A stretch of DNA of 36,930 nucleotides, taken from positions 15,130 through 52,059 of the forward strand of contig CAYJPP010000001.1 of NCBI GenBank assembly GCA_964372175.1. Reading direction: 5' to 3'. A program made the position numbers and the translations under genes. Under the pieces are notes generated by a model. It saw nothing but the letters and a program-made list of their open reading frames with translations. It was not told the origin of the DNA and did not search any database. Positions 426 to 23,867 of this stretch are shown piece by piece; position 1 is the stretch's first letter, and each line of letters opens with the position of its first letter. Source of the DNA: an uncultured Muribaculaceae bacterium. Its GTDB lineage: Bacteria; Bacillota_I; Bacilli_A; RF39; UBA660.

Positions 426-3400
426 TTACTTTCTTTTTTTACTATATACCACAATTATTAATCCAATCAATACTGTCGTCCCTATAAAAATCCATGCATA
501 ATTATTTTTTTCATCAATTGGCTCAGTAATCACTTCATCTTCTGCCACTTCTACAATTGTATAAGTTGAAAACTTATTTGTTTTAATGGTAATGGTATTG
601 TCATTATCATCTAAGTCGTCTAATACTGAAACCTCTCCATTGTGAACTCTTAATACAACAAATTTCTTCTCATCGCCTCTTAGTTCTTCTGGTATAGTTA
701 AAACTAATTCAATTTCTTCTGATAAATTATTAATATTTGTTACAACACCATCAACTACTTTTTCTAAAGTAATGTTAAGCATTTTTCCAATTATCATATT
801 TTTACCTTTAATAAAATTATTTATAAAATCTAATTCGTCTGTATTATAATTAAATTCGATTTTTAAATTTATTGTTAAATCATCAGATTTTAAATCTTCT
901 AAATCAAATAATTGTTTAAATGATTCTTCATTTACTACTACATCTAAATCAGAATCAAGATTAAAAGTAAAATCTTTTTGATCAGAATTATCAGAATTTT
1001 CTTCTTGACTAGAACTATTATTATCAGGCACTTGTTCTTGATCAGAATCATCAATCTCTTCATCAGTAGTATCTTCTACTACTTTATCTAATGAATTATT
1101 AAAATCAGTTATAGCATTATTTAATTCGATAACCATTGTATCTATATTTTCCTGTGTATAACTACTATTAAGTAGATTATTTGCGTCTTTGTATACACTT
1201 TTTAATAAATTATTAGCTTCTTCTGTTTTATTATTATTACTTAATAATTCGGTAACATTTGATATGACAGTTTCTAATTTACTTATATCCACAGTCGCAT
1301 CTTCATAAAAATTAGCTAAATTACCTGCTATTCCCCCACCATGAGATTCTGTAAATTCTATTTTAATAAATTTAATTTCTTCTATAACATCTATATTAAA
1401 TTCTTTTAATAAGTTATTATTTTCAATATTAGTAAATGTTTGTATTTCTTCATAATGAATTCCATCTAAACTTCCATATAAAGTTAATGCTTTAGGTCTC
1501 CCTGTATTAGTTGGATATGGTAAGAAATCAAATTTAGATAGCTTAATAATATTATTAAATTCATATATAATAAATTGCGGTAATGCATCAACACTGTAAT
1601 AATTATTGTTTATATTACCGTTAATTAAATTATTACCTGTTTTATCTGCATTATAAGGTTTCGAACTATCAACTAAGGTAATATTTTCAATATTAATATA
1701 TTGCTTAGTTACATCATCGCTATTTTTAGTAAAGGTATAAGTATTAGTTTCACTTGCTAAAACAGTTCCATAAGCTTTAGCTCTAACCTCTAAACTAATA
1801 TCTCCTCTAAATCTATTATCACCTATGCTAATCCATTTACTTGAATTAATATCATAGTATTCTAAAATTAATGAAGAGCCTATTAATCTATTTTCTAAAT
1901 CATTTAAATAAACAGAATTCATAACTCCATCGGTAATATCTATAACAAAAATATTTTCTTCTGCATAAGGTAACCCAACTATATGAATTTTAATATCATT
2001 TAAAGAGGTAATACTAGCTAGTTCCACATCACTTAATAAGATATTCATTTCTTCCACTTGTTTCCATGTTAATCCATCATCTAGTGAATAATCCCACACT
2101 ACTTTACTTCCACTAAATTTATCAGCAGATAATCTGATTTCATTAGCGAATTCCCCATCAAAAGAAAATGTAGCTAAATCAGTATCAACTATTCCAAGTA
2201 AATGTTCAGCTTGTTGACGGATCCCTAAGTGCTCTAAATTATCACTTACAGTAACATTTAAATCTCGGTTTAGATTACTGTCTAACATTTTATAATATAT
2301 AGAACTATAAGAAGGAAGGTTTTCTATTCTAGGTAACACTAATTCAAATAAGTGATACATTGGTAAAGGACTAAATTCCAAAGCAGAAGATACTTCTTCT
2401 AATAAAGAGATTAATTCATCATTAGTCTTATTACCATCATTTACATATAACTTAACAAGGTCTAACCAAGCACCATAATCTCTACTATTTATTTTAATTG
2501 TATTTCTTAATATTTCTTCTTGCTTTACTATGTCATCAATAAATGAATTAGTAACTAGTCTATTTAAATAACCTTCCTTATAAACATCGAAATTATTTAA
2601 ATTTTCCTGAGATAAAAATATATAACTAGCATTATATCCAGAAACAGAACTATCGTCTCCCCAAGTAAGAGGCATGCGCACATAAAACTTATCATACATC
2701 GCAGTTGGTCCACCAGAACCAGTTAACCCCCAATTAGAAGCACTATTATATACCCATCCCCAGTACATATTATCTGATACATCATCATAACTAGAATAAA
2801 CATAAGCTAAATGCCCTGGTTGACTAACCGCATTAGCCGGAACACCTGATACGTTCCATATATCTGCACCAGTTTTAGAAATCCCCCAACAAATTCCACC
2901 ACCTTCGAATACTGCCCATAGTTTAGGACTTTCAAAATAAAGAGTATCAATTCCAAATTGAGAAAATTTATATTTACTATCCCACTCACTGAATTTACTC
3001 ATATCAGAAAATTCAGCTTTATAATAACCAAATTTATCCGTATACACCATATAAGTATATGGACTTCTTCTACTATTATCATTATCATAATAACCCGGTT
3101 CATTTAATCCTGCTGCCTCATCTTCTGATTCTATATACCAGTTTAACCATTCAACAGTTTCATCATCTAAATGAGCATTTAATACATAACGCATTTCTTC
3201 AACTTCTAAATTTTCAAACATCAAATTACTAGTCACAAAAACACCAACTGCATTTTGATAACCTAATAAATTATTATTATATAATTTCTTAAATACTTTA
3301 TATCTATCAACAGGATGAGAAACACTCGGATGATCATATGAATCAAATGTCCCAACACTTACCCCATCATTATCAGTATCGTTTTGATGAGCTGTCCAGA

Positions 3401-4850
3401 ATCTTACTGTTATACTATACCCTTTACCAATTGAAAAAAACATTTTTTTATAAATATCACTATACAAATTACCATGAGTTGTCGTTACATTATTAGATAA
3501 ATCTGCTTTAATAACAGAGTCTTTGTATAGCATTAATAAAATATTTAATTCATCTATATACTCGCCATCAGGGCTCCCCCCTAAAGTATAGTAGCTTAAA
3601 TTTTCATAATCCGTCATTAACCAAGTTAAAAATTCATTATTAACTTCACTATAATGAACAAAATCAACTAAATAATTATATCCAATATTATTGACTAGAT
3701 TACGCTGCATTACAAGCATTTTATATTCTTGACTTAATATATTACTGTAACCAGTTTTAATTAACTCATCATACTCATTTATAGTTTTAAGATAAGCAGG
3801 AACTGCTGGAATTCTACTTATATATGAATCTATTATTGAAGCTGATTTTAAAACTGGCAAATTATCAAAACTAGTACTGCTTATATTCCATACTGTCTCA
3901 TCTAATAATAAAGTATTTTTAAAAAATCCATCATTAACATCATTACTAGAAATATCTCTTAACCAATTATAATTCTGTTTTTTAAAAGTATGAGCAGCCC
4001 AATCATATGAGTTTGTTCCTCCGCCATATCCATAACCAATTATTCTGTTAATTTCACTTACATCAACACCATCAGTAGCGTTTAAAACATTATTTAAATA
4101 AATATAATCGCCACTATCAGAGCTACCTAAAATCCCACCTCTTCTAGCAGTACCATTTACTGGTTTAAACAAAGTTTTTAATATGCTATTATTAATATTA
4201 ACAGTGCCTTCATTTTTACCTATAAATCCACCTACATGCCAACCTTTTCCGGTAGTTGTAGTTTCTATATAAACGTTATTAAAAGTAGTGACACCTTTAT
4301 TTAAAGCTATAACCCCACCAACATATTCTTTACCTTCAACATAAGTATTTGTTATAGAACTAGTATTAACTTCGACATTAGTTGTTTTAGCTACAAAACC
4401 ACTCACACCATTACCAGTATTAGATATAATTGAAGAATCGATAACATGCACATTAGTAAAAGTAGTATCAATCGCACTATTAGCTATAATTCCATATGAA
4501 CTATCATTAATAATATTAGCAGATGCTATAATCAAATCACTAATCACACTATTACTAAGTGAGTGAAATAAAGGTCTATTTAAATTTTTTATAGCATACC
4601 CATTACCTTTTATTTCCCCTGTAAAGTCATTCATGTAAGCTGCTTGATTAGTAAAATCATGCCCTAAAAAGTTCAAGTCACTTTGAACATTTATAACAGA
4701 TGCTGTTAAAAGAGCATTTAAAAATTCATCCGCGGTATTTACATCAACAGGCACACTAGAACTATATTCAGTATTACTCGCTTCTATATAATCTCCATTA
4801 ATTCCAAAGACCAAACTTAAAATCACAACAAAAATCGCACTTTTTTTCAT
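426..4850 (-). CDS. Large multidomain surface protein of 1,474 aa. It has a signal peptide, GLUG-type beta-helix repeats, a transglutaminase-like Cys/His core, F5/8 type C (discoidin) and FIVAR-like domains, an acidic linker and a C-terminal TM anchor.
   Basis: I place the start at ATG 4850 (MKKSAIFVVILSLVFG), with GGAGG 5 nt upstream; the track ORF extends a further 17 codons. Motifs seen: FTGEIKGNGYAIKNL, YVGGVIALNKG, HVGGFIGKNEG and RRGGILGSS (GLUG-like); GGGICWG...QPGHLAYVY (Cys/His core); ALPQFIIYEF...ALTLYGSLDGIHYEEI (discoidin-like). The tail ends WIFIGTTVLIGLIIVVYSKKRK. No LPXTG and no HExxH. Confidence 0.85.
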   Translation of the reverse strand: MKKSAIFVVILSLVFGINGDYIEASNTEYSSSVPVDVNTADEFLNALLTASVINVQSDLNFLGHDFTNQAAYMNDFTGEIKGNGYAIKNLNRPLFHSLSNSVISDLIIASANIINDSSYGIIANSAIDTTFTNVHVIDSSIISNTGNGVSGFVAKTTNVEVNTSSITNTYVEGKEYVGGVIALNKGVTTFNNVYIETTTTGKGWHVGGFIGKNEGTVNINNSILKTLFKPVNGTARRGGILGSSDSGDYIYLNNVLNATDGVDVSEINRIIGYGYGGGTNSYDWAAHTFKKQNYNWLRDISSNDVNDGFFKNTLLLDETVWNISSTSFDNLPVLKSASIIDSYISRIPAVPAYLKTINEYDELIKTGYSNILSQEYKMLVMQRNLVNNIGYNYLVDFVHYSEVNNEFLTWLMTDYENLSYYTLGGSPDGEYIDELNILLMLYKDSVIKADLSNNVTTTHGNLYSDIYKKMFFSIGKGYSITVRFWTAHQNDTDNDGVSVGTFDSYDHPSVSHPVDRYKVFKKLYNNNLLGYQNAVGVFVTSNLMFENLEVEEMRYVLNAHLDDETVEWLNWYIESEDEAAGLNEPGYYDNDNSRRSPYTYMVYTDKFGYYKAEFSDMSKFSEWDSKYKFSQFGIDTLYFESPKLWAVFEGGGICWGISKTGADIWNVSGVPANAVSQPGHLAYVYSSYDDVSDNMYWGWVYNSASNWGLTGSGGPTAMYDKFYVRMPLTWGDDSSVSGYNASYIFLSQENLNNFDVYKEGYLNRLVTNSFIDDIVKQEEILRNTIKINSRDYGAWLDLVKLYVNDGNKTNDELISLLEEVSSALEFSPLPMYHLFELVLPRIENLPSYSSIYYKMLDSNLNRDLNVTVSDNLEHLGIRQQAEHLLGIVDTDLATFSFDGEFANEIRLSADKFSGSKVVWDYSLDDGLTWKQVEEMNILLSDVELASITSLNDIKIHIVGLPYAEENIFVIDITDGVMNSVYLNDLENRLIGSSLILEYYDINSSKWISIGDNRFRGDISLEVRAKAYGTVLASETNTYTFTKNSDDVTKQYINIENITLVDSSKPYNADKTGNNLINGNINNNYYSVDALPQFIIYEFNNIIKLSKFDFLPYPTNTGRPKALTLYGSLDGIHYEEIQTFTNIENNNLLKEFNIDVIEEIKFIKIEFTESHGGGIAGNLANFYEDATVDISKLETVISNVTELLSNNNKTEEANNLLKSVYKDANNLLNSSYTQENIDTMVIELNNAITDFNNSLDKVVEDTTDEEIDDSDQEQVPDNNSSSQEENSDNSDQKDFTFNLDSDLDVVVNEESFKQLFDLEDLKSDDLTINLKIEFNYNTDELDFINNFIKGKNMIIGKMLNITLEKVVDGVVTNINNLSEEIELVLTIPEELRGDEKKFVVLRVHNGEVSVLDDLDDNDNTITIKTNKFSTYTIVEVAEDEVITEPIDEKNNYAWIFIGTTVLIGLIIVVYSKKRK

Positions 4851-4891
4851 AAAACCTCCACAGGTTTTCACCTGACATAATATTACTAGGT

Positions 4892-4920
4892 ATCTTATCA
4901 TCCTAAGAACTATAAGTCAA
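4892..4920 (-). promoter_or_regulatory. SigA-type promoter for the 1,474-aa gene
   Basis: The minus strand reads TTGACT, a 17-nt spacer, then TAAGAT, about 40 nt upstream of ATG 4850. Confidence 0.4.
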
Positions 4921-4983: not shown

Positions 4984-6591
4984 TTATTGAATATAAACTT
5001 TTGCTATAGTTCTGTAATAAACTCTATAATTACCAAATGATTTTACCGAATAATCAAGCTGTTCTAATTCTTTTATTATAGCATTATCCCTGTGTATTAC
5101 ATAACCAGCTTCTAAATCAACCACATCAGTCTTATAAATATGTGTAGAAGTTTTTCCCTTTACTACCTCATTACTATAATCATAAGGAGATGTTTTAAGT
5201 AATAAATTAGAATATATAGGGCTTCCCTCAACATAAAATAAATCTTCATCTAACGTATTAGAAAATTCAAGAGCCTCATAAAAATCAGTATAAAATAAAT
5301 CATAATCATTTGCTCTTGTAGTATGGTGTTCAAAATAGAAAATGTTAAAACATACAAAATTAATCACGAATAAGCAGATGATTGGAACAATGATTTGAGA
5401 TTTCAATTTAAACATTTTATAAAGTCCAACAAAAACAAAATAAACAACAGGAAACATTATTGCATTTGCTTTGTTAATATTTGGTTGAACTATAAGTAAC
5501 TGACAAATCAAAACACTTAAAAACCAAATCATCATTAATACGTCTAAACTATATTCTCTTTTAACAATTTTCAATTTTATATTCTTACACACCTCATAAC
5601 AGCCAATTATAAAAAACGGAATAGCCATATAATAAATTGTCCCAAATTCATAAGACGAATTATAAGTAAGTAAATTTCCAAATACAAAACTATTATCAAA
5701 CGTCAATATTGATGGCAATATATATAAATTTAAAAATACATTATCAAATGAAATTTCACTACCTCTATACGAAGTCATCGCTGGTATGGTTATAAAAGAA
5801 TTAATTTCATTAATTATACCAGAATTTACTAGTATCATTAAAATTAATGGGATAGCAAATAAAAATACAGGTATTCCAAAACTTATTAATTTTTTTAAGT
5901 TTATTTTTTTTATATATAGCAAATAACCACATATCATTACTAAATATATAGGAATCACAATAAAAGATAATGCGTAAGTATAAAGCGTTAATCCAAAGAA
6001 AATCCCAGGTAAAATAAATGATTTATTTCCAGTAATACTATGATGTAGTAAAAAAGATGCAATCGTTAGAAATCCAACCATTAAATTACAATCTAATCCA
6101 AATCTTGATTGCATAATAAAATACGGATTAATAGCTAATAAAAATAAAAATAGCAGTGATTTCCGCTTATCTTTTATAAGAAAAAATCCTAGTGTTATTA
6201 AAACTATTTTAAAAATAACACCTGGTATTCTAATTATAAATAAGCTAAATTCAAAAATAGTTACCAATATTGAAACTAAATAACCCATCATAACACTTTG
6301 TCCACCGCCAAAATTTATGAAATAAATAGGATACTTATTTAAATATCTATCAACGCCATCTGTTGATAAGGCTAAGGCATCATAGGCCATACCAGCTTCA
6401 TCAATATGAATTGATGCTGGAACTTCATCCAGTTTGTAAAAAGAGGTAAATATAATTATACCAAATAACAAGCAAACAATAAGTTTATAGTTTTTCATAA
6501 CAAAATTATCGAATTTAAAATTAGATTTTTTAAACTTGAAAAATAATAACATCATAACAACTATAATAGATAAAATATTAAAATACACCAT
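4984..6591 (-). CDS. GT-C fold integral-membrane glycosyltransferase of the PMT_2 / ArnT-like family
   Basis: A polytopic protein of about 535 aa with 12 or more hydrophobic segments. The first loop reads SIHIDEAGMAYDALALS, the acidic DE-type motif typical of PMT/ArnT enzymes. The track start at 6600 is a GTG fused to GGAG. ATG 6591 sits 8 nt after GGAG and is more plausible. Confidence 0.7.
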   Translation of the reverse strand: MVYFNILSIIVVMMLLFFKFKKSNFKFDNFVMKNYKLIVCLLFGIIIFTSFYKLDEVPASIHIDEAGMAYDALALSTDGVDRYLNKYPIYFINFGGGQSVMMGYLVSILVTIFEFSLFIIRIPGVIFKIVLITLGFFLIKDKRKSLLFLFLLAINPYFIMQSRFGLDCNLMVGFLTIASFLLHHSITGNKSFILPGIFFGLTLYTYALSFIVIPIYLVMICGYLLYIKKINLKKLISFGIPVFLFAIPLILMILVNSGIINEINSFITIPAMTSYRGSEISFDNVFLNLYILPSILTFDNSFVFGNLLTYNSSYEFGTIYYMAIPFFIIGCYEVCKNIKLKIVKREYSLDVLMMIWFLSVLICQLLIVQPNINKANAIMFPVVYFVFVGLYKMFKLKSQIIVPIICLFVINFVCFNIFYFEHHTTRANDYDLFYTDFYEALEFSNTLDEDLFYVEGSPIYSNLLLKTSPYDYSNEVVKGKTSTHIYKTDVVDLEAGYVIHRDNAIIKELEQLDYSVKSFGNYRVYYRTIAKVYIQ

Positions 6592-6610
6592 ATACAGCAC
6601 TCCTATATTA

Positions 6611-6637: not shown

Positions 6638-6660
6638 CAAAAAAGCGAATTTTATTCGCT
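6638..6660 (-). terminator. Rho-independent terminator of the giant gene
   Basis: The minus strand reads AGCGAAT-AAA-ATTCGCT followed by TTTTTTGTTGG. The 7-bp stem encloses the TAA stop at 6652-6654. Confidence 0.6.
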
Positions 6661-9600
6661 CTTAATTATAGTTTTGTCAATTAAATTTAGATCTTCACTA
6701 TTAGTGTAATTATCTTTATTTACATCACCAGCTAGTATGTATCCATCTATAAGTAGTTTAGTTTTGTTAATATGATTACTAAACTCTATTTTATCTAATA
6801 CATTAATTTTAGAATCGCCATTCAAGTCGCCTAATACAATTAGAGTGACTTCATCATAAATAATATCATCTACAACCAACTTAACTTTCATATTAGTACC
6901 TACTATACCAGTATATAAAGCATCATTCTTATATATTTTTATATGTTCACTATTATAAAAATTTTCTATGATTTCTGTGACTGGTATATTTTCTACAATC
7001 ACGTAATCATTATTAATTGTATAAATATCACTTTTTAAAGCTAATGCATCATTATCATTACTAATATTAATCTTATACTCTTGTACTGTATAATTATCAA
7101 CACCTATTACTTCAATTATATAACTATTAGGTAAATTAATATCACCCATTAAATTAACTGTTGCAGCTAAGTCATTAGCAATAGCTGTTATTTCACTTTC
7201 AAGCAACATATTTTTACTACTTGAAACAGCTAGATTATATTCAAACACAGTAGGTTCAAAGTCTATATTGTAGTTTTCTATTTTTAACTCTTTTAATAAT
7301 ACATCTGAAACTTCTTTTGATATATTAAATGTATACTCATTAACACTACCGTCTTCTGCTGTTATTGTAATTAATCTAGTACTTGTTCCATTAAGAATAC
7401 CTACTTGTTCGTGTCCTGTAACAACAGCACTGGTATCTTCAAGTATTACCTCAAATTCCAAAACACTAGCATCGTCTGGTAATATGAGTTCATAAGTTTT
7501 TGTTTCCGGTTCAAAGTTAATATTTCCAAATGAAGGTATAATATTAATAACATTATTATTAGTACTAGCTATTTTATCTACACCTAAATTATAAACATTA
7601 ACTAATCCACTTTCACTTGTTACAGCAACACTTAATTTATTGTTTCCAACTTCTAAATTATAAGATTCTAATCCAACAACAGTTGACTTAGGATCGTCAG
7701 CTACTCCAAATAAAATAACATCTGTAACATCAGGTTCAACTGTAATTTGATAGTCATTTTTATTTTTCACAAATTTAGGATTTAAATCAAATTGTTTATT
7801 TAAATCCCTTATTTGTAAAGAACTTAAATAATTATTATCAGAAATTATCTTATTAACATAAATAAAATATGATCTTTTAATTCCAATTGGCGAGGTAACA
7901 ATAACTTCAATTGTTTTTTCTTTTTCAAAGATTTCAACCGTTCCATCACCACTAACAGTAGCATTTGGATTCATTGTCTCTGTGATTATATCAACCATTG
8001 ATACTTCATTTTCTATATTGATTGTGTATTCTAAAATTTCTGGATTAAACATCGGTTCCATTAAGTGATTAGTAACTTCTAAATTATTCAATAAATTATC
8101 AGTATACATTTTTCTATACACAGTTATTGTATAAGTTTGTTCTGTAACGAAATCAGAAGCTAATACTTTTATTTCAACTGTATTCAATCCTTCTTTGAAT
8201 TCTTCATTACCTATAACTTGTACAAAGCCGTTAGGATCTTCTAACTCATACATCAGATCTAGTGAAGTTGTTTCATTATTAACTTCTATATTATAATCAA
8301 AGATGTTTTTATTGAAATCTGTATCAAAGGGATAATCTGCTGCTTTTAATTCAGTTAACAAAGCTGAATTAAGTTCGTTTCTAGTTATATTAACTTGATA
8401 TGTTTTAACATCACCATTTTCAGCAGTTACTACTACACTTATTTTGTTTTCACCAACAATTAAATCATATTCTCCTACACCTGATACTTTTGCATTACTA
8501 TCACTCGAACTGGCGTATACAAAGGTAGTATCAATCTCATAATCAACAATCAGTTCATAATTTAAAATATCTTTATCGAATACTGGCGTTAAAGGCCCAA
8601 TATCTGTATATAGTTTTTCTAAATCATTATTATTAGAACCTTCTTTTGTTACTATAATAACATATGATTTTGAATTTCCACTTTCACTGGTAACCAATAA
8701 TTGGATTATATTTCTTCCTACTTCCAGTTCGTGAATTCCATTCCCACTTACTACTGCACTTTGTTCTTCTGCAATACCTTCAACCGCAATACTATTAACA
8801 TCATTTAAAACATTCATTGTATAAAATGTTGTCGTTTTGTAAAATACTGGACTGTATTCATAATCCGTTATAATGTCACTTAAATTATTATTATCACTTG
8901 CTTCTTTGGTAACATTGATTTTATATGTTTTAGTTGTGACTAAATCAGGTGCGGTTACTGTAATTTCAATTAAGTTATCTCCTGTTGTTAATACTTCATT
9001 TCCAGTAACTTCATATGTTGACTTTTCTTCTGTCGGTTCAATAATAACAAAGTCTAAATCAGTTTCACTAGTTGTTAAATAGTAATCTGTAACATCTGTT
9101 CTAAAAGATGGATTTAAATTATGTGATTTTATAACAACTGATTTTAATGATGCATCACTACTCAATTTTCTAGTTACAACCACTTGATAATCTAACAAAT
9201 TATTATTTTCATCTAATGCGGTAACTACTAAAACATTTTTACCCTCTTTTAAACTATATGTCCCATTACCTATAATCCTCATACTCTCATCATTCAAAAT
9301 ACCTTCGATAGCTATTTCAGTTATCTCATTTTCAACTGTTACATAATAATCTCTTATTAAACTATCAAATTGTGGTTCTAGAACACCTTCTGATACTGAT
9401 AAATCGAATAAAGTTAAATCGGATAAATGTGGATTTTCTTTGTAAACATTTAAAGTATAGTCTTTTGTGTGAATTAAATCCTCAGCAGTCACTCTTATTA
9501 CAACTTCATTGTAACCTGTTACGAAATTACTGTTTCCAATTACTTCATAAGTAGCATTTTTATCCTCTGGTTCAATGGTAAGAGTTAGTGACTCAACACT

Positions 9601-12600
9601 ATTAGGTACGCGAAGTTGATAATGAATAGTTGTATCTTTAAAAGTTGGATTTAAGGCTGCTTCCTTAGCAAATAAAAAATCCAAATCATCATTTACAGAT
9701 AAATCTCTTATAACATTAACAACATAATCTCTTTCTTCACCACTCTCACTGGTAACTTTAATATTAATATTATTTTCACCAGTTATAAGCGAGTATTTAC
9801 CGTTTCCTGTAACTGTTGCTTTTCTACTTGTTGGAGTAGCTATTATTTCAATTTCATCAACTTCATTTTGAACATTAATTACATAAGTAGAATCATCAAT
9901 TTTACTAACTTCACTATTTTTATTGTTTTCTATTTTTAAAATCGAGTTATCGGTACTGACACCTCTGGTTATTATTAAAGTATAATCTTTTTCAATACCT
10001 GTTTCTGAAACTATTTTAAAATTAATTGTATTTTCTCCTACTTTTAAAGAATAGTTTCCATTCCCTACTACTTTTGAATCATTGTCAACCGGCATTATTT
10101 CTATATCAATAATATCAATGTCATTAGATACATTCATAGTGTATGTAGTTAAAGAATTATCAATAGTTTCATTAATCACACCTTTTGAAGATGTTATGCT
10201 GAATAGTTCGTTATTATCAGATATTTCTTTTGTTATATTTAAAGTATATAATCCAACCGCACCATTTTCAGCAGTAGTTTCAATTAAAATTTTCGTTTCT
10301 GTTTCATTTAAATTATTATTTAATATTTTATAATTAGTTGTCTCTGCTACTGTTGTTGCTGTTATATTTAAATTTGGAAGATGTTTATTAACTGTTAAGT
10401 CATATTCATACACACCACTATTAAATTCAAACGGATAGTTTTCAACAGTTAAAGTTTTTAATCTTGTATCATTATTTTTATCTTTTAAAACATTAATTAT
10501 ATAAACGTTTGATATCCCATTCCCACCAGTAACTGTTATAGTGATTTTAGTGTTTCCAGATTTAATCACATCAGGCTTATCTATTGTAACAACAGAATAT
10601 TCACTTTCTGGGGTTGCTACAATATCTATTGTATTAACATGGCTAGGCAAATTTAATGTATATTCATTAAATGTCTTATCAAACATTGGAGAAAGATTAT
10701 AAGTTTCCTCAGTCTCAAAAATTTCATCATAATTACTAATATTTAAATCCTTTAAAAATACATTAGTATCATTAGCCTTATAAACATATAAGACATAAGT
10801 TCTTTTTGTTCCATCAAATGATGTTACTTTAACAAAAGATACATTCATACCTATTTTTAAGTTCGTATTTCCACTAACTTCCACTGTTGCATTGGAAGCT
10901 TGCGGTGTTGCGATAACATCAAATGAATTATATGCACTATCAATAGTCAGATGATAAGCATGTACATCAGGATTAAAAGTAAAATCTATTACTGGATTAA
11001 CTATATCCAAAGTAGCTAGTTTATTATTACTATTTTGGTCAACTATAAAAGAATAACTGTAAGTACTTTTATTCAGACCGTCCTCGGCGGTTATTTCAAT
11101 TTGAAAGTTATTTATGGTATCTTCCATTGTTACTTGATAGTCTGTTAATGTTATAAATTCATCATTTTGATGTTTTTTCAATACAACTTCTTGATATTTT
11201 TGTGCTTTAACTATATCAAATTCAACATGCATTAAATTTGAAGGAATATTAATAATATAAGAGTTAGTATTTTTATCAAATGTGTAATCACAATATTCTA
11301 TCCCACAAATATATTCATACATTTTATTTATGATAATATCTTCTGGGAAAGGATTACTTGATATTTCTCTTGTTACATTAAATGTATAAGTTCTGATTTG
11401 CCCATTAGAAGCAGTTACTATCAATTCATATACTTGTGATTCAGCAGTAACTTCTTTAAGACCTGTTCCCACAACATATGCTTCATTATCTTTTGTGAGA
11501 GCTTCTATATCTAGTTCAGTTTGATGTTCAGTTAAATGTATATCATACTCTAAAACCCAAGGTTCGAAATCGATTTCAACTGAGCCATCATTCAATATTA
11601 TATTATCTAAGTAATTATTATTATTAGATTCAATGACAGTTATTTTAGCGTATCCGTTCCCACTATGTCCGGTTCCATAAGGATATAAACTACCAGTTGT
11701 ATTAGGCATCTGGCTTCTGCCACCTCGCACGTTACTCCAATGATAAGCATAACCATCAATCATTGATGTATTAGAGAATTTTAATCCAGAATAATGAACA
11801 GAACATCCATTATTTGTAGTTCCGGTCGTACATCCAGCTTTTGGAGCTTGGTTTGTAGCAGATGTTATTGCAACTGATCCTGTGTGACCAGATATGTATG
11901 ATGAACCACCACCGCCAGATCCAACAACAGAAGAGTTATAAGAGCCTCCTCCTCCGCCATAGTAGCCGCCTCCGCCACCGCTTCCATGACTATATTCTGG
12001 CATTCCACCAATCCCAAAACTACCATTTGTTGCACATCTATAACCACAACCTGCATTACCACCTGCTGTTTGTGTTCCACCAGTTGCATTTGCATAGTAA
12101 TTAGACCACGAACGATATTCACGCCCGTTATATCCAACTAATCCACCACCAGGTGAAGCGTTAGAAACTGGATACATCCAGTTAGAAATCCCCGATCCAG
12201 CACCAGCTACCATTATTCTACTACGTAAACTAGTAGCATCGTTCCAGGTTCCACCTACTAATCTAATATCCGTGGCACCGCCACTACCAGCACCATAAGT
12301 CTGTCCATTATAAGGTCGCCCTTCGCCTCCACCGTTATAACCACCGGTTTGATTGTTTGAAACAGTTCCAGATAATTTTCCTTGTCCGCCGACTTGAATA
12401 TATAGAGTTTGGTCTTTGTTAAGAGCAACAGTTCCAGCCGTATAAGCTCCTCTACCACCTAATAAAGAACCGTTATTTCCCCCTTGTGCGCCCCAAAGTT
12501 CTATTTTGTATAAGCTATCATATGGAGCGGTAAAAGTCTGAACACTTCCTGTAAATCCAAAATTAAAAGGATCTATTTTTAAAACTTCTTTATTAATTTT

Positions 12601-14430
12601 TAATTTATAAACACTAGTATCAAGACCTTCTATCGAAGAGGTAATTGTTATAATATCAGTATGTTCAAAGTACTTATTGCCTTCAACTGTTATAATGGCT
12701 TCTTTTAAATACGGCTCGGTTGTTACATCAAGCGCATACAAAAGATTAGAAACATCGAGTGTATAATTAGCTGTCGAGCTACTAAAAGCAAAATCAATAT
12801 TTGGATCACTCAAAGTAATGTTTTTTAATTTTGTGGTTCTTTCTTTTTCAAAATTAAATGTATAGATGTTAGTTCCACTGTTATCTTCTGCAACGACTAG
12901 TATAACAAACATCATACTTTGTTCATCAAATTGAAATATTGTATCTTCAAAACCGTTTATAGTAACTCCTTGATAAGGCATGTTTTTTAATACATCTAAT
13001 TTTATTTCTTCTGTATCATAAGGCATTGTTATGTTATATTCAAATATATTACTATCAAATTCAGAATATAATGTATCATTTATTTTAATCCCATCTAGTA
13101 TGGTGGTGCTGGATGGTTCTCTAATTAGATTAATTTCATAAAGTTGAGTTCTCCCAGTTGAATTTGTAACTGATAACGTATGTTTATGGCTATTAGGTTT
13201 AACACTTATTGTTGTTTGTCCAACTATTTGTTGTCCTGTTGGTGCACTTGCTGTAATTACAGCTTCTTTTACCATAGTGTCTAAATTTAAACTGTAACTA
13301 AATATGCCACCCGTCAAAGATATAGACTCACCATTTACAGTAATTGAATTTAACATCGGATCAATTACTTCTTCTTCATAAGTTATTTTTGCATATCCAT
13401 TTCCACTATGACCCACACCATTAGCATTAAGCCCTCCACTTGTAGTTGGCATTCTCAAATACCCGCCTTTTGTGTTAGTCCATTTATAACCAAAACCGTC
13501 AATCATAACAGTTTCAGTAAAAGTCATACCTGAATAATGAATAGAACAATTATTATTTGTAGTCCCAGTTGTACAACCTGATTTAGGTGCTTGGTTTGTA
13601 GCCGAAGTAATCGCTACTGAACCTGTATGGCCGGAAATATACGATGATCCTCCTGAACCGGAACCAACATGGCCGTGGTTATAAGCACCACCACCACCAC
13701 CGTAGTAGCCTCCTCCACCGCCACTTCCGTGTCCGCTTTCTGCTGCACCGCCAATTCCAAATGTTCCAGAACTCCCACATTTAAGACCACAAGACCTAGT
13801 TCCACCAGCAGTTTGAGTAGCCCCTGTTGCATTAGTTAATGGATCACCACTATGACTAACACTTCTACCAGGATAACCAATTAAACCACCAGCAGGTGCG
13901 GCATTGGAAATAGGCGATTGCCAGTTTGATAACCCCGATCCTGCTCCTGCCACCATAATTCTACTGCGTAAACTAGTTGCATTATTCCACTCACCGCCTA
14001 CTAACCTAACATCAGTTGCGCCGCCACTACCAGCACCATAAGTAGCTCCAGAATATGCTCTTGCTTCTTGCCCGCCATTATACCCAGCAGTAACACTAGC
14101 CGAACCAGCAAGTTTACCTTGGCCGCCAACTTGGATAAATATAGTTTGCCCTTTAATAAGCTCTACAACACCAGCTGTATAAGCTCCTCTACCACCAAGT
14201 AAAGAACCATTATTCCCACCTTGGGCCCCCCAAAGTTCTATCTTGTAAAATCCACTAACTGGCGCTGTAAATGATTGAACATTACCAGTATACCCAAAAT
14301 TATAAATCGTCCCTAAATTGGGCGCAGCTATTTCTTGATTTAAACTAATCTGATAATTAGAATTATCATTTAAAATATTAAAAATTAAAATACTACAAAT
14401 TAAAAGTACGAAGATAGCAAGTTTTTTCAT
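6652..14430 (-). CDS. Giant secreted protein of 2,592 aa. It has a signal peptide, two glycine-rich (ALK/LTK-type, PF12810-like) domains, 20 cadherin-like beta-sandwich modules and a C-terminal dockerin.
   Basis: A single uninterrupted ORF starting MKKLAIFVLLICSILIF, with SD AAGGTG upstream. Domain motifs are given under the repeat features below. No LPXTG motif and no TM anchor. Confidence 0.9.
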   Translation of the reverse strand: MKKLAIFVLLICSILIFNILNDNSNYQISLNQEIAAPNLGTIYNFGYTGNVQSFTAPVSGFYKIELWGAQGGNNGSLLGGRGAYTAGVVELIKGQTIFIQVGGQGKLAGSASVTAGYNGGQEARAYSGATYGAGSGGATDVRLVGGEWNNATSLRSRIMVAGAGSGLSNWQSPISNAAPAGGLIGYPGRSVSHSGDPLTNATGATQTAGGTRSCGLKCGSSGTFGIGGAAESGHGSGGGGGYYGGGGGAYNHGHVGSGSGGSSYISGHTGSVAITSATNQAPKSGCTTGTTNNNCSIHYSGMTFTETVMIDGFGYKWTNTKGGYLRMPTTSGGLNANGVGHSGNGYAKITYEEEVIDPMLNSITVNGESISLTGGIFSYSLNLDTMVKEAVITASAPTGQQIVGQTTISVKPNSHKHTLSVTNSTGRTQLYEINLIREPSSTTILDGIKINDTLYSEFDSNIFEYNITMPYDTEEIKLDVLKNMPYQGVTINGFEDTIFQFDEQSMMFVILVVAEDNSGTNIYTFNFEKERTTKLKNITLSDPNIDFAFSSSTANYTLDVSNLLYALDVTTEPYLKEAIITVEGNKYFEHTDIITITSSIEGLDTSVYKLKINKEVLKIDPFNFGFTGSVQTFTAPYDSLYKIELWGAQGGNNGSLLGGRGAYTAGTVALNKDQTLYIQVGGQGKLSGTVSNNQTGGYNGGGEGRPYNGQTYGAGSGGATDIRLVGGTWNDATSLRSRIMVAGAGSGISNWMYPVSNASPGGGLVGYNGREYRSWSNYYANATGGTQTAGGNAGCGYRCATNGSFGIGGMPEYSHGSGGGGGYYGGGGGSYNSSVVGSGGGGSSYISGHTGSVAITSATNQAPKAGCTTGTTNNGCSVHYSGLKFSNTSMIDGYAYHWSNVRGGRSQMPNTTGSLYPYGTGHSGNGYAKITVIESNNNNYLDNIILNDGSVEIDFEPWVLEYDIHLTEHQTELDIEALTKDNEAYVVGTGLKEVTAESQVYELIVTASNGQIRTYTFNVTREISSNPFPEDIIINKMYEYICGIEYCDYTFDKNTNSYIINIPSNLMHVEFDIVKAQKYQEVVLKKHQNDEFITLTDYQVTMEDTINNFQIEITAEDGLNKSTYSYSFIVDQNSNNKLATLDIVNPVIDFTFNPDVHAYHLTIDSAYNSFDVIATPQASNATVEVSGNTNLKIGMNVSFVKVTSFDGTKRTYVLYVYKANDTNVFLKDLNISNYDEIFETEETYNLSPMFDKTFNEYTLNLPSHVNTIDIVATPESEYSVVTIDKPDVIKSGNTKITITVTGGNGISNVYIINVLKDKNNDTRLKTLTVENYPFEFNSGVYEYDLTVNKHLPNLNITATTVAETTNYKILNNNLNETETKILIETTAENGAVGLYTLNITKEISDNNELFSITSSKGVINETIDNSLTTYTMNVSNDIDIIDIEIMPVDNDSKVVGNGNYSLKVGENTINFKIVSETGIEKDYTLIITRGVSTDNSILKIENNKNSEVSKIDDSTYVINVQNEVDEIEIIATPTSRKATVTGNGKYSLITGENNINIKVTSESGEERDYVVNVIRDLSVNDDLDFLFAKEAALNPTFKDTTIHYQLRVPNSVESLTLTIEPEDKNATYEVIGNSNFVTGYNEVVIRVTAEDLIHTKDYTLNVYKENPHLSDLTLFDLSVSEGVLEPQFDSLIRDYYVTVENEITEIAIEGILNDESMRIIGNGTYSLKEGKNVLVVTALDENNNLLDYQVVVTRKLSSDASLKSVVIKSHNLNPSFRTDVTDYYLTTSETDLDFVIIEPTEEKSTYEVTGNEVLTTGDNLIEITVTAPDLVTTKTYKINVTKEASDNNNLSDIITDYEYSPVFYKTTTFYTMNVLNDVNSIAVEGIAEEQSAVVSGNGIHELEVGRNIIQLLVTSESGNSKSYVIIVTKEGSNNNDLEKLYTDIGPLTPVFDKDILNYELIVDYEIDTTFVYASSSDSNAKVSGVGEYDLIVGENKISVVVTAENGDVKTYQVNITRNELNSALLTELKAADYPFDTDFNKNIFDYNIEVNNETTSLDLMYELEDPNGFVQVIGNEEFKEGLNTVEIKVLASDFVTEQTYTITVYRKMYTDNLLNNLEVTNHLMEPMFNPEILEYTINIENEVSMVDIITETMNPNATVSGDGTVEIFEKEKTIEVIVTSPIGIKRSYFIYVNKIISDNNYLSSLQIRDLNKQFDLNPKFVKNKNDYQITVEPDVTDVILFGVADDPKSTVVGLESYNLEVGNNKLSVAVTSESGLVNVYNLGVDKIASTNNNVINIIPSFGNINFEPETKTYELILPDDASVLEFEVILEDTSAVVTGHEQVGILNGTSTRLITITAEDGSVNEYTFNISKEVSDVLLKELKIENYNIDFEPTVFEYNLAVSSSKNMLLESEITAIANDLAATVNLMGDINLPNSYIIEVIGVDNYTVQEYKINISNDNDALALKSDIYTINNDYVIVENIPVTEIIENFYNSEHIKIYKNDALYTGIVGTNMKVKLVVDDIIYDEVTLIVLGDLNGDSKINVLDKIEFSNHINKTKLLIDGYILAGDVNKDNYTNSEDLNLIDKTIIKSE
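6655..6834 (-). other. Dockerin type I-like module, the last 60 aa of the giant protein
   Basis: There are two F-hand Ca-binding loops with D1-N3-D5-D12 spacing, about 35 aa apart: DLNGDSKINVLD and DVNKDNYTNSED. The preceding context is TLIVLGDLNGD. Confidence 0.65.
7045..11637 (-). repeat. Array of 17 tandem cadherin-like beta-sandwich modules of about 90 aa (protein-level repeats)
   Basis: The recurrent pattern is L..L.v....l.P.F......Y.l.V......i.i.a......a.v.GnG.y.L..GeN.i.i.VtsE.G....Y.i.V.R. Examples are SLKSVVIKSHNLNPSFRTDVTDYYLT...YKINVTKE and DLEKLYTDIGPLTPVFDKDILNYELIV...YQVNITRN. The modules have diverged at the DNA level. Confidence 0.7.
11638..12570 (-). repeat. Glycine-rich domain, copy 2 (aa ~621-931)
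   Basis: Motifs in order: FNFGFTGSVQTFTAP, YKIELWGAQGGNNGSLLGGRGAYTAG, YIQVGGQGK, YGAGSGGATDIRLVGG, SRIMVAGAGSG, HGSGGGGGYYGGGGG, GGSSYISGHTGSVAITSATNQAPK, GNGYAKIT. Confidence 0.7.
12571..13380 (-). repeat. Three cadherin-like modules between the two glycine-rich domains
   Basis: aa ~351-620, for example MLNSITVNGESISL...YEINLIRE, ILDGIKINDTLYSEFDSNIFEYNITM...YTFNFEKE and KLKNITLSDPNIDFAFSSSTANYTLDV...YKLKINKE. Confidence 0.6.
13381..14307 (-). repeat. Glycine-rich domain, copy 1 (aa ~42-350)
   Basis: The motifs are collinear with copy 2: YNFGYTGNVQSFTAP, YKIELWGAQGGNNGSLLGGRGAYTAG, HGSGGGGGYYGGGGG, GNGYAKIT. By eye roughly 70% of residues are identical, while synonymous sites have diverged. 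Confidence 0.7.
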
Positions 14431-14455
14431 AAAACACCTTCTTTATTCTAAACAC

Positions 14456-14484
14456 ATTATAACAAAATCAGTTGCTTTTTACAA
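14456..14484 (-). promoter_or_regulatory. SigA-type promoter of the giant gene
   Basis: The minus strand reads TTGTAA, a 17-nt spacer, then TGtTATAAT (extended -10), about 25 nt upstream of ATG 14430. Confidence 0.5.
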
Positions 14485-14961
14485 TATAAAAGAACAAATT
14501 TATTTGCCCTTAATTGTTACAATAGTCAATAATGCTAAATGCACTTATTTTTTAGTTTAACTTCAAACACTACTATCATACTTTCATACAAATTAAAAAC
14601 CATAAACTATTTTAATTAAATAAATTTATCCAAAATTTCATTTACAAAGACTAGTACACTTCTTATAAATTCTTTCAGTATAATTATTTCACTTAGTTTC
14701 ATGCTCTTTATCATATATATCACAGTTTTTAAATGTCATTGATTTTAAAGTTGAAATAACTTCTAATTTATTAACAGCGATAATGATAACCCTTTTATAT
14801 GGCAATAATTATACAAATGTTAATAAAAATTTTGCAAACAAATAAAATTAATATCTGAGGATTTTGAAAATAAATAAATTTATTAGAGGTAAATATAAAG
14901 GTATGAAAAATACTGTTTTGCATATCAAACTAAATCTGGTTTAAAAGCATTAATTCAAGAC

Positions 14962-14985
14962 AAAAAAAAGAACTAATCAGTTCTT
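14962..14985 (-). terminator. Rho-independent terminator after tyrS
   Basis: The minus strand reads AAGAAC-tgatta-GTTCTT followed by a T8 run. The stem overlaps the tyrS TAA stop. Confidence 0.5.
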
Positions 14986-21641: not shown

Positions 21642-23867
21642 TTATTTTATTACAAATTTTAATTGGCAATCAATTTCAGTTTCTTTATCATCGATTAATT
21701 TTAGCATTTCTGCAAAGTTATTACGATAAATATGTTTATTAGATAATAATATTTCATGTAATTTGGAAACAATTACATATTCAGTTGTACCTCTATTTAA
21801 TTGTTTTTTTAATTTTAATAATTCTTTACAAAAATTTTCATCTGTTATAACATCAGTTTTAATTGCTGCTACATAATAAATGATTTTTTTTATATAAGAT
21901 AATCTGTCTAATATTTTTTTTAATCGTTCAATAGTAATATTCTTTTCAAAAATTGCAGTAAGTGCTAAATCAGCTTGTTCAGTTAAAATCATCTTTAACT
22001 CTTTTTCTTTTTCTAAATTAATTTCTAGTATATACATTCTAACTAATTGTGAACGAATTGGTCCATTTTCGGTATTTTCGAGAGCTAACTTTTTCGCTTC
22101 TTCAAATTCTTTCAAAGCTCTACATACTGTTATTAACTGTGATTTTATAACTAAATTATGTACATGTTGATATCCTAATTGTTTTGCTATTTTTAAATAT
22201 TCTACTTTTCTTGTACTTGTTATACTTAAACAACTTTTAATTACTTCTGAAGCAGAGTATTCATCAAAGTTATATTTTAATCCATATTCAACAACTCGTT
22301 CATGTTGATTTTCTTCTCTTAAGGCCTTTAAAAATCTATGTTGATGTTTCAACTCATTTGGATATTTTTTTGCTATTTCACTTAGAATTATTGATTCTTT
22401 TATCTCAGAAGTTTCTGCCAGTCCATTTTCTAAAATATACTTTTCTCTTATTTCAATTTCTTCTCGTAGTTCTAAAAATGTGTCACCCACCAATTCTAAA
22501 TTTGCATAATATTTAGCTTTTTTTAAATCACCTTGTAATATATATATTCTAATTAACCGGGCACGAATTGGTTCATATTCGGTATTTTCGAGTGCTAATG
22601 TTTCAGCTTCTTCAAATTCCTTCAAAGCTATACATACTGTTATTAACTGTGATTTTATAGTTAAATTATGTACATGTTGATATCCTAATTGTTTTGCTAT
22701 TTTTAAATATTCTATTTTTCTTTTACTTGTTATACTTAAACAACTTTTAATTACTTCAAAAGCACAGTGTTCATCAAAGTTATATTTTAATCCATATTCA
22801 ACAACTCGTTCATGTTGATTTTCTTCTCTTAAGGCCTTTAAAAATCTATGTTGATGTTTCAACTCATTTGGATATTTTTTTGCTATTTCACTTAGAATTA
22901 TTGATTCTTTTATCTCAGAAGTTTCTGCCAGTCCATTTTCTAAAATATACTTTTCTCTTATTTCAATTTCTTCTCGTAGTTCTAAAAATGTGTCACCCAC
23001 CAATTCTAAATTTGCATAATATTTAGCTTTTTTTAAATCACCTTGTAATATATATATTCTAATTAACTGAGCACGAATTGGTCCATATTCGGTATTTTCG
23101 AGAGCTAACTTTTTCGCTTCTTCAAATTCTTTCAAAGCTATACATACTGTTATTAACTGTGATTTTATAACTAAATTATGCATATATTGATATCCTAGTT
23201 GTTGTGCTATTTTTAAATATTCTATTTTTCTTTTACTTGTTATACTTAAACAGTTTTTAATTATTTCTGAAACAAAATATTCATCAGAAACATACTTCAA
23301 ACCAAATTCAATAGCGCTTTCATATTCCTTTGCTTCTCTTAAAATTCTTAAATAGAAGTATTGCCATTTCATATAAGTTGGATACTTTTTTGCCATTTCA
23401 TAAATATATTCAAGATTATTACTTTCATAAATTTTTTTAAAATTTCCTTGTGACGCATATAGTTCAATTAATTGTGAACGAATAGGTAGATAACATGTAC
23501 TTTCAAGTGCCAATTTTTCTGCTATCTTAATTTCTTTTAATTCTATACACACGGTTATTAATTGTGATTTTATAACTAAATTATGCATATATTGATATCC
23601 TAGTTGTTGTGCGACTTTTAAGTAATATATTCTTTTTTTATTTTCCATCGGTATACTTAAACAAGTTTTAATTGTTTGTGAAATAAAGTATTCATCATCA
23701 GTATATTTTAATCCAAGTTCAATTGCTCTTTCATATTGCTGTTCTTTTCTTAAAATTTTTAAAAAAAGATATTGTACTTCTTTATTATCTGGATATTCTT
23801 CTGCCATTTTGTGAAAATATTTATAATCCTTCCTATCATATGCATTTTTTAAATCTTCTTCTAACAT
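21642..23867 (-). CDS. Helical (TPR-like) repeat protein of 741 aa, function unknown
   Basis: Four internal units, each starting at YP (YPDNKE, YPTYMK, YPNELK, YPNELK). They are followed by a unique C-terminal region of about 120 aa. SD AAGGAG upstream. No signal peptide or TM segment. Confidence 0.8.
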   Translation of the reverse strand: MLEEDLKNAYDRKDYKYFHKMAEEYPDNKEVQYLFLKILRKEQQYERAIELGLKYTDDEYFISQTIKTCLSIPMENKKRIYYLKVAQQLGYQYMHNLVIKSQLITVCIELKEIKIAEKLALESTCYLPIRSQLIELYASQGNFKKIYESNNLEYIYEMAKKYPTYMKWQYFYLRILREAKEYESAIEFGLKYVSDEYFVSEIIKNCLSITSKRKIEYLKIAQQLGYQYMHNLVIKSQLITVCIALKEFEEAKKLALENTEYGPIRAQLIRIYILQGDLKKAKYYANLELVGDTFLELREEIEIREKYILENGLAETSEIKESIILSEIAKKYPNELKHQHRFLKALREENQHERVVEYGLKYNFDEHCAFEVIKSCLSITSKRKIEYLKIAKQLGYQHVHNLTIKSQLITVCIALKEFEEAETLALENTEYEPIRARLIRIYILQGDLKKAKYYANLELVGDTFLELREEIEIREKYILENGLAETSEIKESIILSEIAKKYPNELKHQHRFLKALREENQHERVVEYGLKYNFDEYSASEVIKSCLSITSTRKVEYLKIAKQLGYQHVHNLVIKSQLITVCRALKEFEEAKKLALENTENGPIRSQLVRMYILEINLEKEKELKMILTEQADLALTAIFEKNITIERLKKILDRLSYIKKIIYYVAAIKTDVITDENFCKELLKLKKQLNRGTTEYVIVSKLHEILLSNKHIYRNNFAEMLKLIDDKETEIDCQLKFVIK
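22023..23795 (-). repeat. Intragenic tandem repeat with a 510-bp (170-aa) period in units 2-4. It contains a 298-bp perfect direct repeat.
   Basis: nt 22260-22557 match nt 22770-23067 base for base in my alignment, at an offset of 510. Flanking unit sequence is about 85-95% identical. Unit 1 is shorter and more diverged. Confidence 0.85.

Follow-up and report, generated by a model that had tools for sequence, protein, structure and literature searches.

We analysed a 36.9-kb stretch of DNA from an uncultured bacterium (positions 15,130 to 52,059 of contig CAYJPP010000001.1; hereafter the window), which carries the gene for a giant protein of 2,592 amino acids (aa) with two glycine-rich domains (GRD1 and GRD2), a long series of cadherin-like modules and a C-terminal dockerin. 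The listing of open reading frames (ORFs) in the window gives this gene with an ATG start on the minus strand, a strand that the initial annotation had left out. We interpret its product, with modest confidence, as a surface fibre that is tethered through a cohesin. The features of the gene and those of related loci are compiled in Table 1.

A Pfam search revealed three domain families in the protein, all above their cut-offs, as the initial annotation of the window had proposed. ALK_LTK_GRD (PF12810, cut-off 24.5 bits) matched twice with 280.6 bits, Cadherin-like (PF12733) matched 14 stretches with 281.1 bits, and Dockerin_1 (PF00404, cut-off 22.9 bits) reached 28.7 bits on the full protein and 31.4 bits on a C-terminal fragment. 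NCBIfam contained no model for the protein. A hidden Markov model (HMM) of the cadherin-like module, built iteratively from the protein's own repeats, detected exactly 20 modules, which repeat about every 88 aa and are arranged as 3 plus 17, just as had been counted before; the GRD motif strings quoted at that time are likewise all present. The linkers between the modules read ..S.DN.L.., and the final module was modelled as an all-beta sandwich, for which Foldseek gave weak tandem Ig/cadherin matches. The two GRDs share 69% identical aa and 73-77% of their DNA sequence. At its N-terminus the protein has the n-region and h-region of a signal peptide (MKK-LAIFVLLICSILIF), and at its C-terminus the dockerin ends with ..IDKTIIKSE. 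Pfam detected no catalytic domain in the protein, and sequence reading together with Pfam revealed no EGF-like domain, kinase, LPXTG signal, type I secretion system (T1SS) signal or RTX repeats. The protein belongs to PF12810, PF12733 and PF00404 and is neither an ALK-type receptor nor a pilin, a phage gene product or an LPXTG adhesin.

Table 1. Coordinates of the giant-fibre gene, its expression signals and protein domains (window positions), and of scaffold gene clusters in related loci (positions in the locus named)
Feature	Coordinates	Strand	Evidence and remarks
Coding sequence	6652..14430	-	2,592 aa + stop codon; collinear full-length relatives
Promoter-like site (TTGTAA, 17-nt spacer, TG-extended TATAAT)	14456..14484	-	Score 10/12; position-only support
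Ribosome-binding site AAGAAGGTG	14435..14443	-	4 nt 5' of ATG; strong; read directly
Terminator-like hairpin + T-run, stop codon in loop	6641..6663	-	Read directly
N-terminal signal segment, aa 1-35 (MKK + 14-17-residue hydrophobic core)	14326..14430	-	Cleavage site unclear
GRD1, aa 36-352, PF12810	13375..14325	-	Pfam; profile; AlphaFold2 model; Foldseek
Cadherin-like beta-sandwich modules 1-3, aa 369-614	12589..13326	-	Self-HMM domain E 4e-16 to 2e-17; Pfam
GRD2, aa 616-933, PF12810	11632..12585	-	Pfam; 69% identical to GRD1
Cadherin-like modules 4-20 (stalk), aa 951-2458	7057..11580	-	Self-HMM domain E 6e-14 to 2e-26; Pfam
Small beta-rich module, aa ~2476-2532, conserved family-wide	6835..7005	-	Model strands, residues 97-153 of model
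Type I dockerin, aa 2533-2588	6667..6834	-	Pfam; Ca-binding loops D2535-D2546, D2569-D2580; three-helix model
Adaptor + anchor cluster downstream of family gene	L082 19191-27904; L084 20417-27171; L246 16785-24703		Gene order + profiles

The uninterrupted 7.8-kb frame in DNA with a G+C content of about 27% excludes chance as its origin. Three relatives from independent assemblies (P0153, P0169 and P0133) align to the protein over 98-99% of its length. No tandem DNA repeats were found, and no repeat is more than 77% identical. The initial annotation had assigned the gene its own promoter and terminator, and both can be read in the flanks. The terminator is a hairpin with a T-run, as is also found directly after tyrS. 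The promoter-like site lies downstream of this tyrS hairpin and T-run, in a 553-bp intergenic gap 5' of the gene (14431-14983) that is very AT-rich and has no ORF. Scanning the whole window for promoters revealed 62 sites with 69 expected, i.e. not above chance, so that the promoter of the giant-fibre gene is called by position only. An Rfam search of the entire window, including this gap, gave zero matches; consequently no T-box leader was detected before tyrS or the other tRNA synthetase gene.

That this ORF arose by chimeric assembly, or is a degenerate or prophage-derived relic instead of a working gene of the cell, is extremely unlikely. The contig stems from a metagenome assembly, internal repeats and a duplicated GRD could mislead an assembler, and GRD genes are common in phages; however, the frame is open throughout, the repeats have diverged, collinear relatives occur in independent assemblies, no phage genes were found in the window, and the start codon, the ribosome-binding site and the terminator are all preserved. 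On these grounds both a prophage origin and an assembly artefact were rejected. Judged by its sequence, the 2,592-aa protein is a genuine gene product and not an artefact.

The protein family and its glycine-rich domain

Among the best 120 matches to the full protein, 51 other clusters with lengths of 2,600-4,500 aa combine PF12810, PF12733 and PF00404, and several more of the 120 have dockerin-like C-termini that were missed by the precomputed Pfam list. The 51 three-domain clusters come from uncultured gut Bacilli or "Tenericutes" metagenome-assembled genomes (MAGs). The same parts are found in a 4,338-aa protein of the cultured Globicatella sulfidifaciens (P0192), which is named 'cadherin-like beta sandwich domain-containing protein' and whose C-terminal dockerin was read from the sequence only. 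The usual layout in most listed members is a signal peptide, a GRD, cadherin-like modules, a conserved beta-rich module and a dockerin. Extra GRDs and Big_2 domains are frequent among the listed family members, and some of them, including P0153, have a few cadherin-like modules ahead of the first GRD. The window protein itself is database entry P0121, and its two closest paralogues are P0123 and P0122. P0123 is N-terminally truncated, 52% identical and has the same dockerin tail; it is very probably encoded on the same contig as the window gene. The initial annotation had named no described protein with this architecture; the 51 clusters and the paralogue show that it is neither unusual nor unique. 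The window protein is a typical representative of a large family, which is present in databases yet, according to literature searches, uncharacterised. Among species-representative genomes, no close relatives of the full window protein were found.

Homologues of the GRD are far more numerous. A word index gave more than 3,371, and an exhaustive search of cluster representatives revealed 6,638 at E<=1e-3, 3,104 at E<=1e-10 and 825 at E<=1e-30. Some of the proteins from the exhaustive search are longer than 7,000 aa, with as many as 9-11 GRD matches. Close GRDs were found mostly in MAGs of uncultured Bacilli, Tenericutes or Mycoplasmatota; they also occur in Patescibacteria, Saccharibacteria, Microgenomates and a few Clostridiales, and multiple copies per genome are common. 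The IF-2 sequence of the window is at most 77% identical to those of uncultured gut 'Bacilli'/'Tenericutes' MAGs and of Firmicutes bacterium CAG:884, and we take the lineage to be RF39-type small-genome gut Bacilli. Several third-party MAGs titled 'uncultured Muribaculaceae bacterium' (L022, L047, L051, L068 and L168-L175) also contain many GRD genes and encode IF-2 proteins 63-69% identical to that of the window; their 'Muribaculaceae' label looks wrong.

An AlphaFold2 model of GRD1, calculated from a 100-sequence alignment (pLDDT 95.9, pTM 0.94), displayed beta-strands at both ends and long glycine-rich stretches between them. Glycine makes up 24% of the domain, with runs such as GSGGGGGYYGGGGG, and 67% of the residues are neither helix nor strand. 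The corresponding part of ALK forms a lattice of 14 polyglycine-II helices (PMC13243192). While a single-sequence phmmer search with GRD1 revealed nothing in the Protein Data Bank (PDB) and a profile was needed, the profile of 100 GRD sequences matched C. elegans SCD-2, human ALK and LTK with E-values from 1.2e-10 to 1.1e-8. The initial annotation had described the domain as ALK/LTK-type and had suggested a Foldseek comparison. In this comparison the best 21 PDB matches of the GRD1 model were all ALK/LTK GRDs (probability 1.0, E 3e-7 to 2e-5), but superposition over the full length reached only TM scores of 0.31-0.42, with an rmsd of 10-15 A and 15-19% identity. Profile and model thus indicate that the kinship of bacterial GRDs with ALK/LTK is real but distant.

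Alignment of GRD sequences revealed eight variable, indel-prone segments that alternate with conserved glycine-rich strands (GRD1 positions 38-44, 70-79, 89-97, 133-142, 152-166, 177-185, 195-199 and 214-221). The differences between GRD1 and GRD2 fall mainly within these segments. Literature searches yielded no bacterial function for the PF12810 domain, in agreement with what had been stated before. Some bacterial and phage GRD proteins are named 'receptor protein-tyrosine kinase' in UniProt-derived tables and have no kinase domain; this name is an automatic mislabel propagated from the ALK-derived Pfam family.

Structure searches with GRD1 also detected predicted structures of viral proteins. 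Three gut-phage proteins (A0A8S5SE10, A0A8S5QTR7 and A0A8S5URB1) matched the model with TMq 0.64-0.65, 29-31% identity and E-values of about 1e-16, followed among viral matches by Caulobacter phages, cyanophages and giant viruses. As far as the model can be relied on, GRD1 is nearer in structure to these phage GRD proteins (TM 0.64-0.65) than to ALK (TM 0.31-0.42), a result of relevance to the question of how the ligand-binding domain of ALK/LTK evolved. GRD1 further matched the phage families PHROGs 5811, 1589 and 7388 at E-values of 1e-37 to 1e-31. A tblastn search of GenBank phages with GRD1 revealed nothing at E<=1e-5, probably as a result of low-complexity masking; weak N-terminal matches at E<=1 were then confirmed by Pfam. 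One such protein, the 'glycine rich family protein' of the C. difficile phage phiCD481-1 (PF12810, 151.9 bits), is encoded by the last tail gene, directly after the tail-collar fibre gene, and three small ORFs separate it from the downstream holin and amidase genes. GRD relatives are encoded on at least 204 viral stretches in IMG/VR, which represent at least 80 distinct loci. One of them, L088, was inspected; its GRD gene is flanked by virion structural genes on one side and by a holin gene on the other.

Phage fibres of solved structure that have glycine-rich tips are receptor binders, in which conserved glycine motifs carry variable tips (PMC9608196). The fibre protein gp24 of cyanophage Pam3 has a TNF-like plus glycine-rich tip that resembles the ALK homologue 7LIR, and host recognition has been proposed to occur via its variable distal tip on a conserved glycine stem (PMC9608196); gp38 of phage S16 is a polyglycine-rich adhesin (PMC9608196; PMC13243192). 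The Pam3 fibre was a marginal Foldseek match of GRD1 (E 0.29).

A third group of GRD proteins starts like type IV pilins. The N-terminal motif KGFTL[IV]E was found in 13 of the 120 nearest single-GRD proteins. Because the GRD ends at the C-terminus in 94 of these 120, we regard it as the globular head of single-GRD proteins. In a further set of proteins with a pilin-like N-terminus and a length of 800-2,200 aa, the GRD is mostly at the C-terminal end as well. A pattern search showed that the prepilin motif [GA]-F-T-L-[IV]-E is absent from the N-terminus of the window protein (MKKLAIFVLLICSILIF). Two other ORFs of the window, encoding 551 aa (29375-31030, minus strand) and 133 aa (31043-31444, minus strand), begin with Gram-positive Com/type IV pilin N-termini (MKKAFTLIELLAVIIILAIV.. 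and MKGFTLVELLAVIIILAII..) of the same kind as those fused to GRDs in other genomes. Neither of them has a GRD or a Pfam match at E<=1e-5.

In most listed members of the giant family the GRD directly follows the signal peptide. Taken together, gene order and domain order suggest that the GRD forms the distal end of filaments in each of three independent contexts, namely the fibres of this family, pilins and the phage tail. This distribution bears on an alternative in which the protein is part of a structural coat or matrix, i.e. a passive spacer, sheath or biofilm scaffold with the GRDs as rigid caps or self-association modules to which no outside ligand binds. The very large, repetitive protein without a catalytic domain would suit such a role, and so would the several paralogues per genome, some of them in tandem, which fit an abundant layer; polyglycine-II bundles serve first and foremost as rigid scaffolds (PMC13243192), and the GRD has no known ligand. 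However, pilin tips and the tail-fibre position in phages, where the GRD recurs, are sites of recognition, and loops that vary on a conserved scaffold are easier to reconcile with diversifying recognition than with lattice contacts. In addition, the hierarchical cohesin scaffolds that relatives encode (see below) would make a long tether and not a two-dimensional layer. We therefore consider a structural coat unlikely.

Dockerin, cohesin scaffolds and neighbouring genes

The C-terminal part of the protein (aa 2380-2592) was modelled with a pLDDT of 91.2 as the last beta-sandwich, the small beta-rich module and a three-helix dockerin. The family consensus of the beta-rich module reads ..YVIG.EP.T....F..NF.N...L..Y... 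The dockerin displays two 12-residue Ca-binding loops, DLNGDSKINVLD (aa 2535-2546) and DVNKDNYTNSED (aa 2569-2580), whose aspartate positions are invariant or nearly so across 25-43 relatives. Its model superimposes on the type I dockerin of C. thermocellum 2ccl_B with TMt 0.89, an rmsd of 2.0 A and probability 1.0, and on 8x39 with an rmsd of 1.9 A and 31% identity. The Pfam score above cut-off, both Ca loops with their conserved aspartates and the predicted three-helix fold together indicate that the dockerin is genuine.

Cohesins were found in loci of relatives. Locus L083 (1-28280), from a mouse-gut-type Bacilli MAG, encodes three tandem paralogues of the family (2,998, 2,969 and 2,759 aa), followed by two secreted proteins of about 280 aa. 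The first of these consists of a cohesin and a dockerin, with 27.3 bits for Pfam Cohesin (PF00963, cut-off 24.1 bits); the second is 40% identical to the first, and Pfam detected just a dockerin in it. More cadherin-like proteins follow, and the complete one among them (1,982 aa) has a dockerin. A profile of the cohesin-dockerin adaptor detected only two near-identical loci in species-representative genomes.

Three other loci (L082, L084 and L246) share a common gene order, which starts with a conserved membrane protein of about 140 aa and continues with the GRD giant, an adaptor and finally one or two anchors. Their adaptor proteins of 1,600-1,850 aa have a signal, a cohesin-like domain, 14-17 cadherin-like modules and a dockerin. 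The one or two anchor proteins per locus (about 510-790 aa) display a signal, a cohesin-like domain, 3-4 modules, a transmembrane helix and a cytoplasmic tail with the conserved sequence ..YDPYD..V.TK.E..DAI... Profiles of the N-terminal domains of adaptors and anchors matched almost only cohesins in the PDB, with best E-values of 8.6e-4 and 3.6e-3, and PF00963 was precomputed for the anchor domain in 7 of 8 database homologues. Since hhalign gave only a weak match between the two classes of cohesin-like domains (probability 12-32%), PDB profile matches and precomputed Pfam labels were used for their assignment. The dockerin- or cohesin-bearing neighbours in the four related loci showed no catalytic domain, be it of a glycoside hydrolase, a lyase or another enzyme. 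The cohesin-bearing adaptors and anchors beside the family genes therefore suggest that the clade has a hierarchical cohesin-dockerin system free of enzymes, which comprises a membrane anchor, an adaptor and the GRD giant.

These scaffolds could also be read as part of a glycan-harvesting system similar to a cellulosome or amylosome, in which the cadherin-like modules bind dietary or host polysaccharide and the GRD is accessory or enzymatic. Cohesin-dockerin systems are best known from polysaccharide degradation, the Pfam description of PF12733 presumably points to carbohydrate binding, and a 1,491-aa surface protein with an F5/8 type C lectin-like domain is encoded downstream of the window gene. 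On the other hand, the twenty near-regular modules resemble a stalk, catalytic relatives of the GRD are not known, and the absence of a catalytic domain from every component examined weakens this explanation, to which we assign a small probability.

The 1,491-aa protein is the second large surface protein of the window (426-4901, minus strand, the same orientation as the giant). It is secreted and consists of a Peptidase_M26_N-like region, the F5/8 type C (discoidin) domain, an acidic low-complexity stretch and a C-terminal transmembrane anchor. Directly downstream of the giant gene, a polytopic membrane protein of 538 aa is encoded (4984-6600, minus strand) with its own TATAAT and AGGAG. Its true start is probably the ATG at 6591, as the listed GTG abuts the ribosome-binding site. 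No Pfam match was found for this protein even at E<=1, and its identification as a GT-C glycosyltransferase, based on resemblance by eye, was dropped. Neither protein recurs beside relatives, and both were therefore excluded from the system. Upstream of the giant gene lie tyrS and genes for a dUTPase and a GNAT protein, rbfA, infB, nusA and rimP; more distant neighbours are truA, ECF transporter subunits, a class II aminoacyl-tRNA synthetase and a UvrD-type helicase. An ORF for a HipA_C-like kinase of 368 aa (24698-26151, minus strand) is overlapped at its 3' end by a 116-aa ORF without Pfam matches, and the two may be a toxin-antitoxin-like pair. A 741-aa protein (21642-23867, minus strand) showed whole-protein Pfam matches to TPR_19, NAMPT_N and RelA_SpoT, with no single stretch over threshold, which makes for a peculiar mixed signal.

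Proposed function and comparison with known systems

The gene probably encodes a secreted giant surface fibre that is tethered by a cohesin and presents its GRDs as recognition heads, which would make it a probable adhesin; we hold this reading with somewhat more than even confidence. The giant protein would be exported by Sec, and its C-terminal type I dockerin would bind a cohesin that the same cell presents on an adaptor or a membrane-anchored scaffold. The cadherin-like modules, 3 plus 17 in number, would form an extended stalk of an estimated 80-100 nm (at about 4-4.5 nm per module), with the two GRDs as rigid recognition heads at and near the free N-terminal end. In each GRD the conserved glycine scaffold would display variable loops that bind a surface ligand, possibly the envelope of another microbe or a host or dietary glycan. 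In this scheme the organism is expected to possess a matching cohesin.

Several observations weigh against this interpretation. HMMs of three cohesin alignments (A2, A3 and A4) detected no cohesin in the six-frame translation of the 36.9-kb window (all E>0.1), and the major surface or extracellular fibre that the initial annotation had suggested is no more than plausible. In the relatives, the individual E-values behind the cohesin assignments are weak, with just a single protein above the Pfam cut-off. Around the window gene lie housekeeping genes as well as the genes of a membrane protein and a second surface protein. GRD2 is located within the chain and not at its end, and the glycine-rich segments of the GRD1 model are compatible with polyglycine-II helices without proving them. 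PHROGs 5811, 1589 and 7388 are all listed as 'unknown function'. Finally, a convincing cleavage site of the AxA type is missing from the signal segment of the window protein: in the candidate IAA|P, position +1 is a proline, and signal peptidase I does not accept this residue there. The signal peptide of the initial annotation is therefore borne out in its n- and h-regions, while its cleavage is putative.

An uncleaved N-terminus would allow an inverted topology, in which the segment serves as a signal anchor, GRD1 is membrane-proximal, and the distal dockerin captures cohesin-bearing proteins or cells. The lack of an AxA-type site after the hydrophobic core fits this arrangement, as do the small secreted cohesin-dockerin adaptors of relatives. 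In most listed relatives, however, a canonical cleavable signal (..VKA, VNA or VYA) stands immediately before the GRD, and the cohesin-bearing, membrane-anchored scaffolds encoded beside family genes place the anchor on the cohesin side. We consider an inverted topology quite improbable and favour the fibre that is held by its C-terminal dockerin.

GRD proteins comprise thousands of clusters from gut metagenomes and phages to which this analysis assigned no function, and their occurrence in three filament-tip settings provides a testable hypothesis of recognition or adhesion for the whole family. A much wider proposal, which we regard as doubtful, is that the GRD is a cell-surface recognition module common to phage tail fibres, pilins of small-genome or epibiotic bacteria and dockerin-tethered fibres of RF39-like Bacilli, and that the ligand-binding domain of ALK/LTK originated from it. 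The pilin lineages concerned would be Saccharibacteria, other Patescibacteria and Mycoplasmatota. If this were true, anchor, adaptor and GRD giant would build enzyme-free 'cellulosome-like' fibres of well over 100 nm that, as tail fibres of cells, grip partner bacteria or host surfaces. The window protein offers a clean and complete example of its family.

Comparison with the ALK/LTK GRDs (PDB 7LRZ, 7N00, 7NX1 and 7LIR) shows PF12810 and terminal beta-strands that enclose glycine-rich stretches as common features. Unlike ALK/LTK, the window protein has no EGF-like domain, transmembrane helix or kinase, and its GRD is duplicated and sits on a 20-module stalk with a dockerin; a cytokine partner of the ALKAL type is not expected. 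With the phage GRD proteins, Pam3 gp24 and S16 gp38 it shares the domain family, the position at the far fibre end, and conserved glycine motifs with variable loops. In contrast to the phage GRD proteins, the window gene is cellular and about ten times larger, and its product has a dockerin instead of a baseplate or fibre adaptor; a trimerisation element is not evident.

Giant adhesins, both the LPXTG-anchored ones of Gram-positive bacteria and RTX adhesins such as SiiE, LapA and MpIBP, consist of an export signal, one or more distal binding domains, a long series of Ig- or cadherin-like beta-sandwiches and, at the opposite end, an element for attachment to the cell. The window protein has the same stalk-and-head layout and would resemble these adhesins most in its mode of action, with a head similar to that of phage fibres; however, its attachment via the dockerin would be non-covalent, and a GRD head has not been described as a bacterial adhesin domain. 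The type IV pilin-GRD fusions from MAGs of Mycoplasmatota, Bacilli and Saccharibacteria (for example P0018-P0020, P0038 and P0094) have a homologous GRD, with 44-49% identical aa over at least 94% of the domain, and likewise display it on a filament. At 430-460 aa, these fusions combine a prepilin N-terminus (KGFTL[IV]E) with a single GRD, whereas a Sec-type N-terminus, a second GRD, a modular stalk and a dockerin distinguish the window protein.

Finally, the dockerin is of the C. thermocellum type, and the adaptor and membrane-anchored cohesin scaffolds encoded by relatives follow the hierarchical logic of the cellulosome. In contrast to the cellulosome, the components seen here carry no enzyme, and a giant non-catalytic fibre takes the place of enzymes as cargo. 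In the relatives, a C-terminal transmembrane helix serves the anchors instead of SLH domains or sortase motifs, and the host is a small-genome gut Bacilli lineage and not a cellulolytic clostridium. The enzyme-free cohesin system would sit in uncultured small-genome gut Bacilli whose lifestyle is poorly known, and the linked cohesin scaffolds of relatives point to a use of cohesin-dockerin pairs for surface fibres rather than for enzyme complexes.

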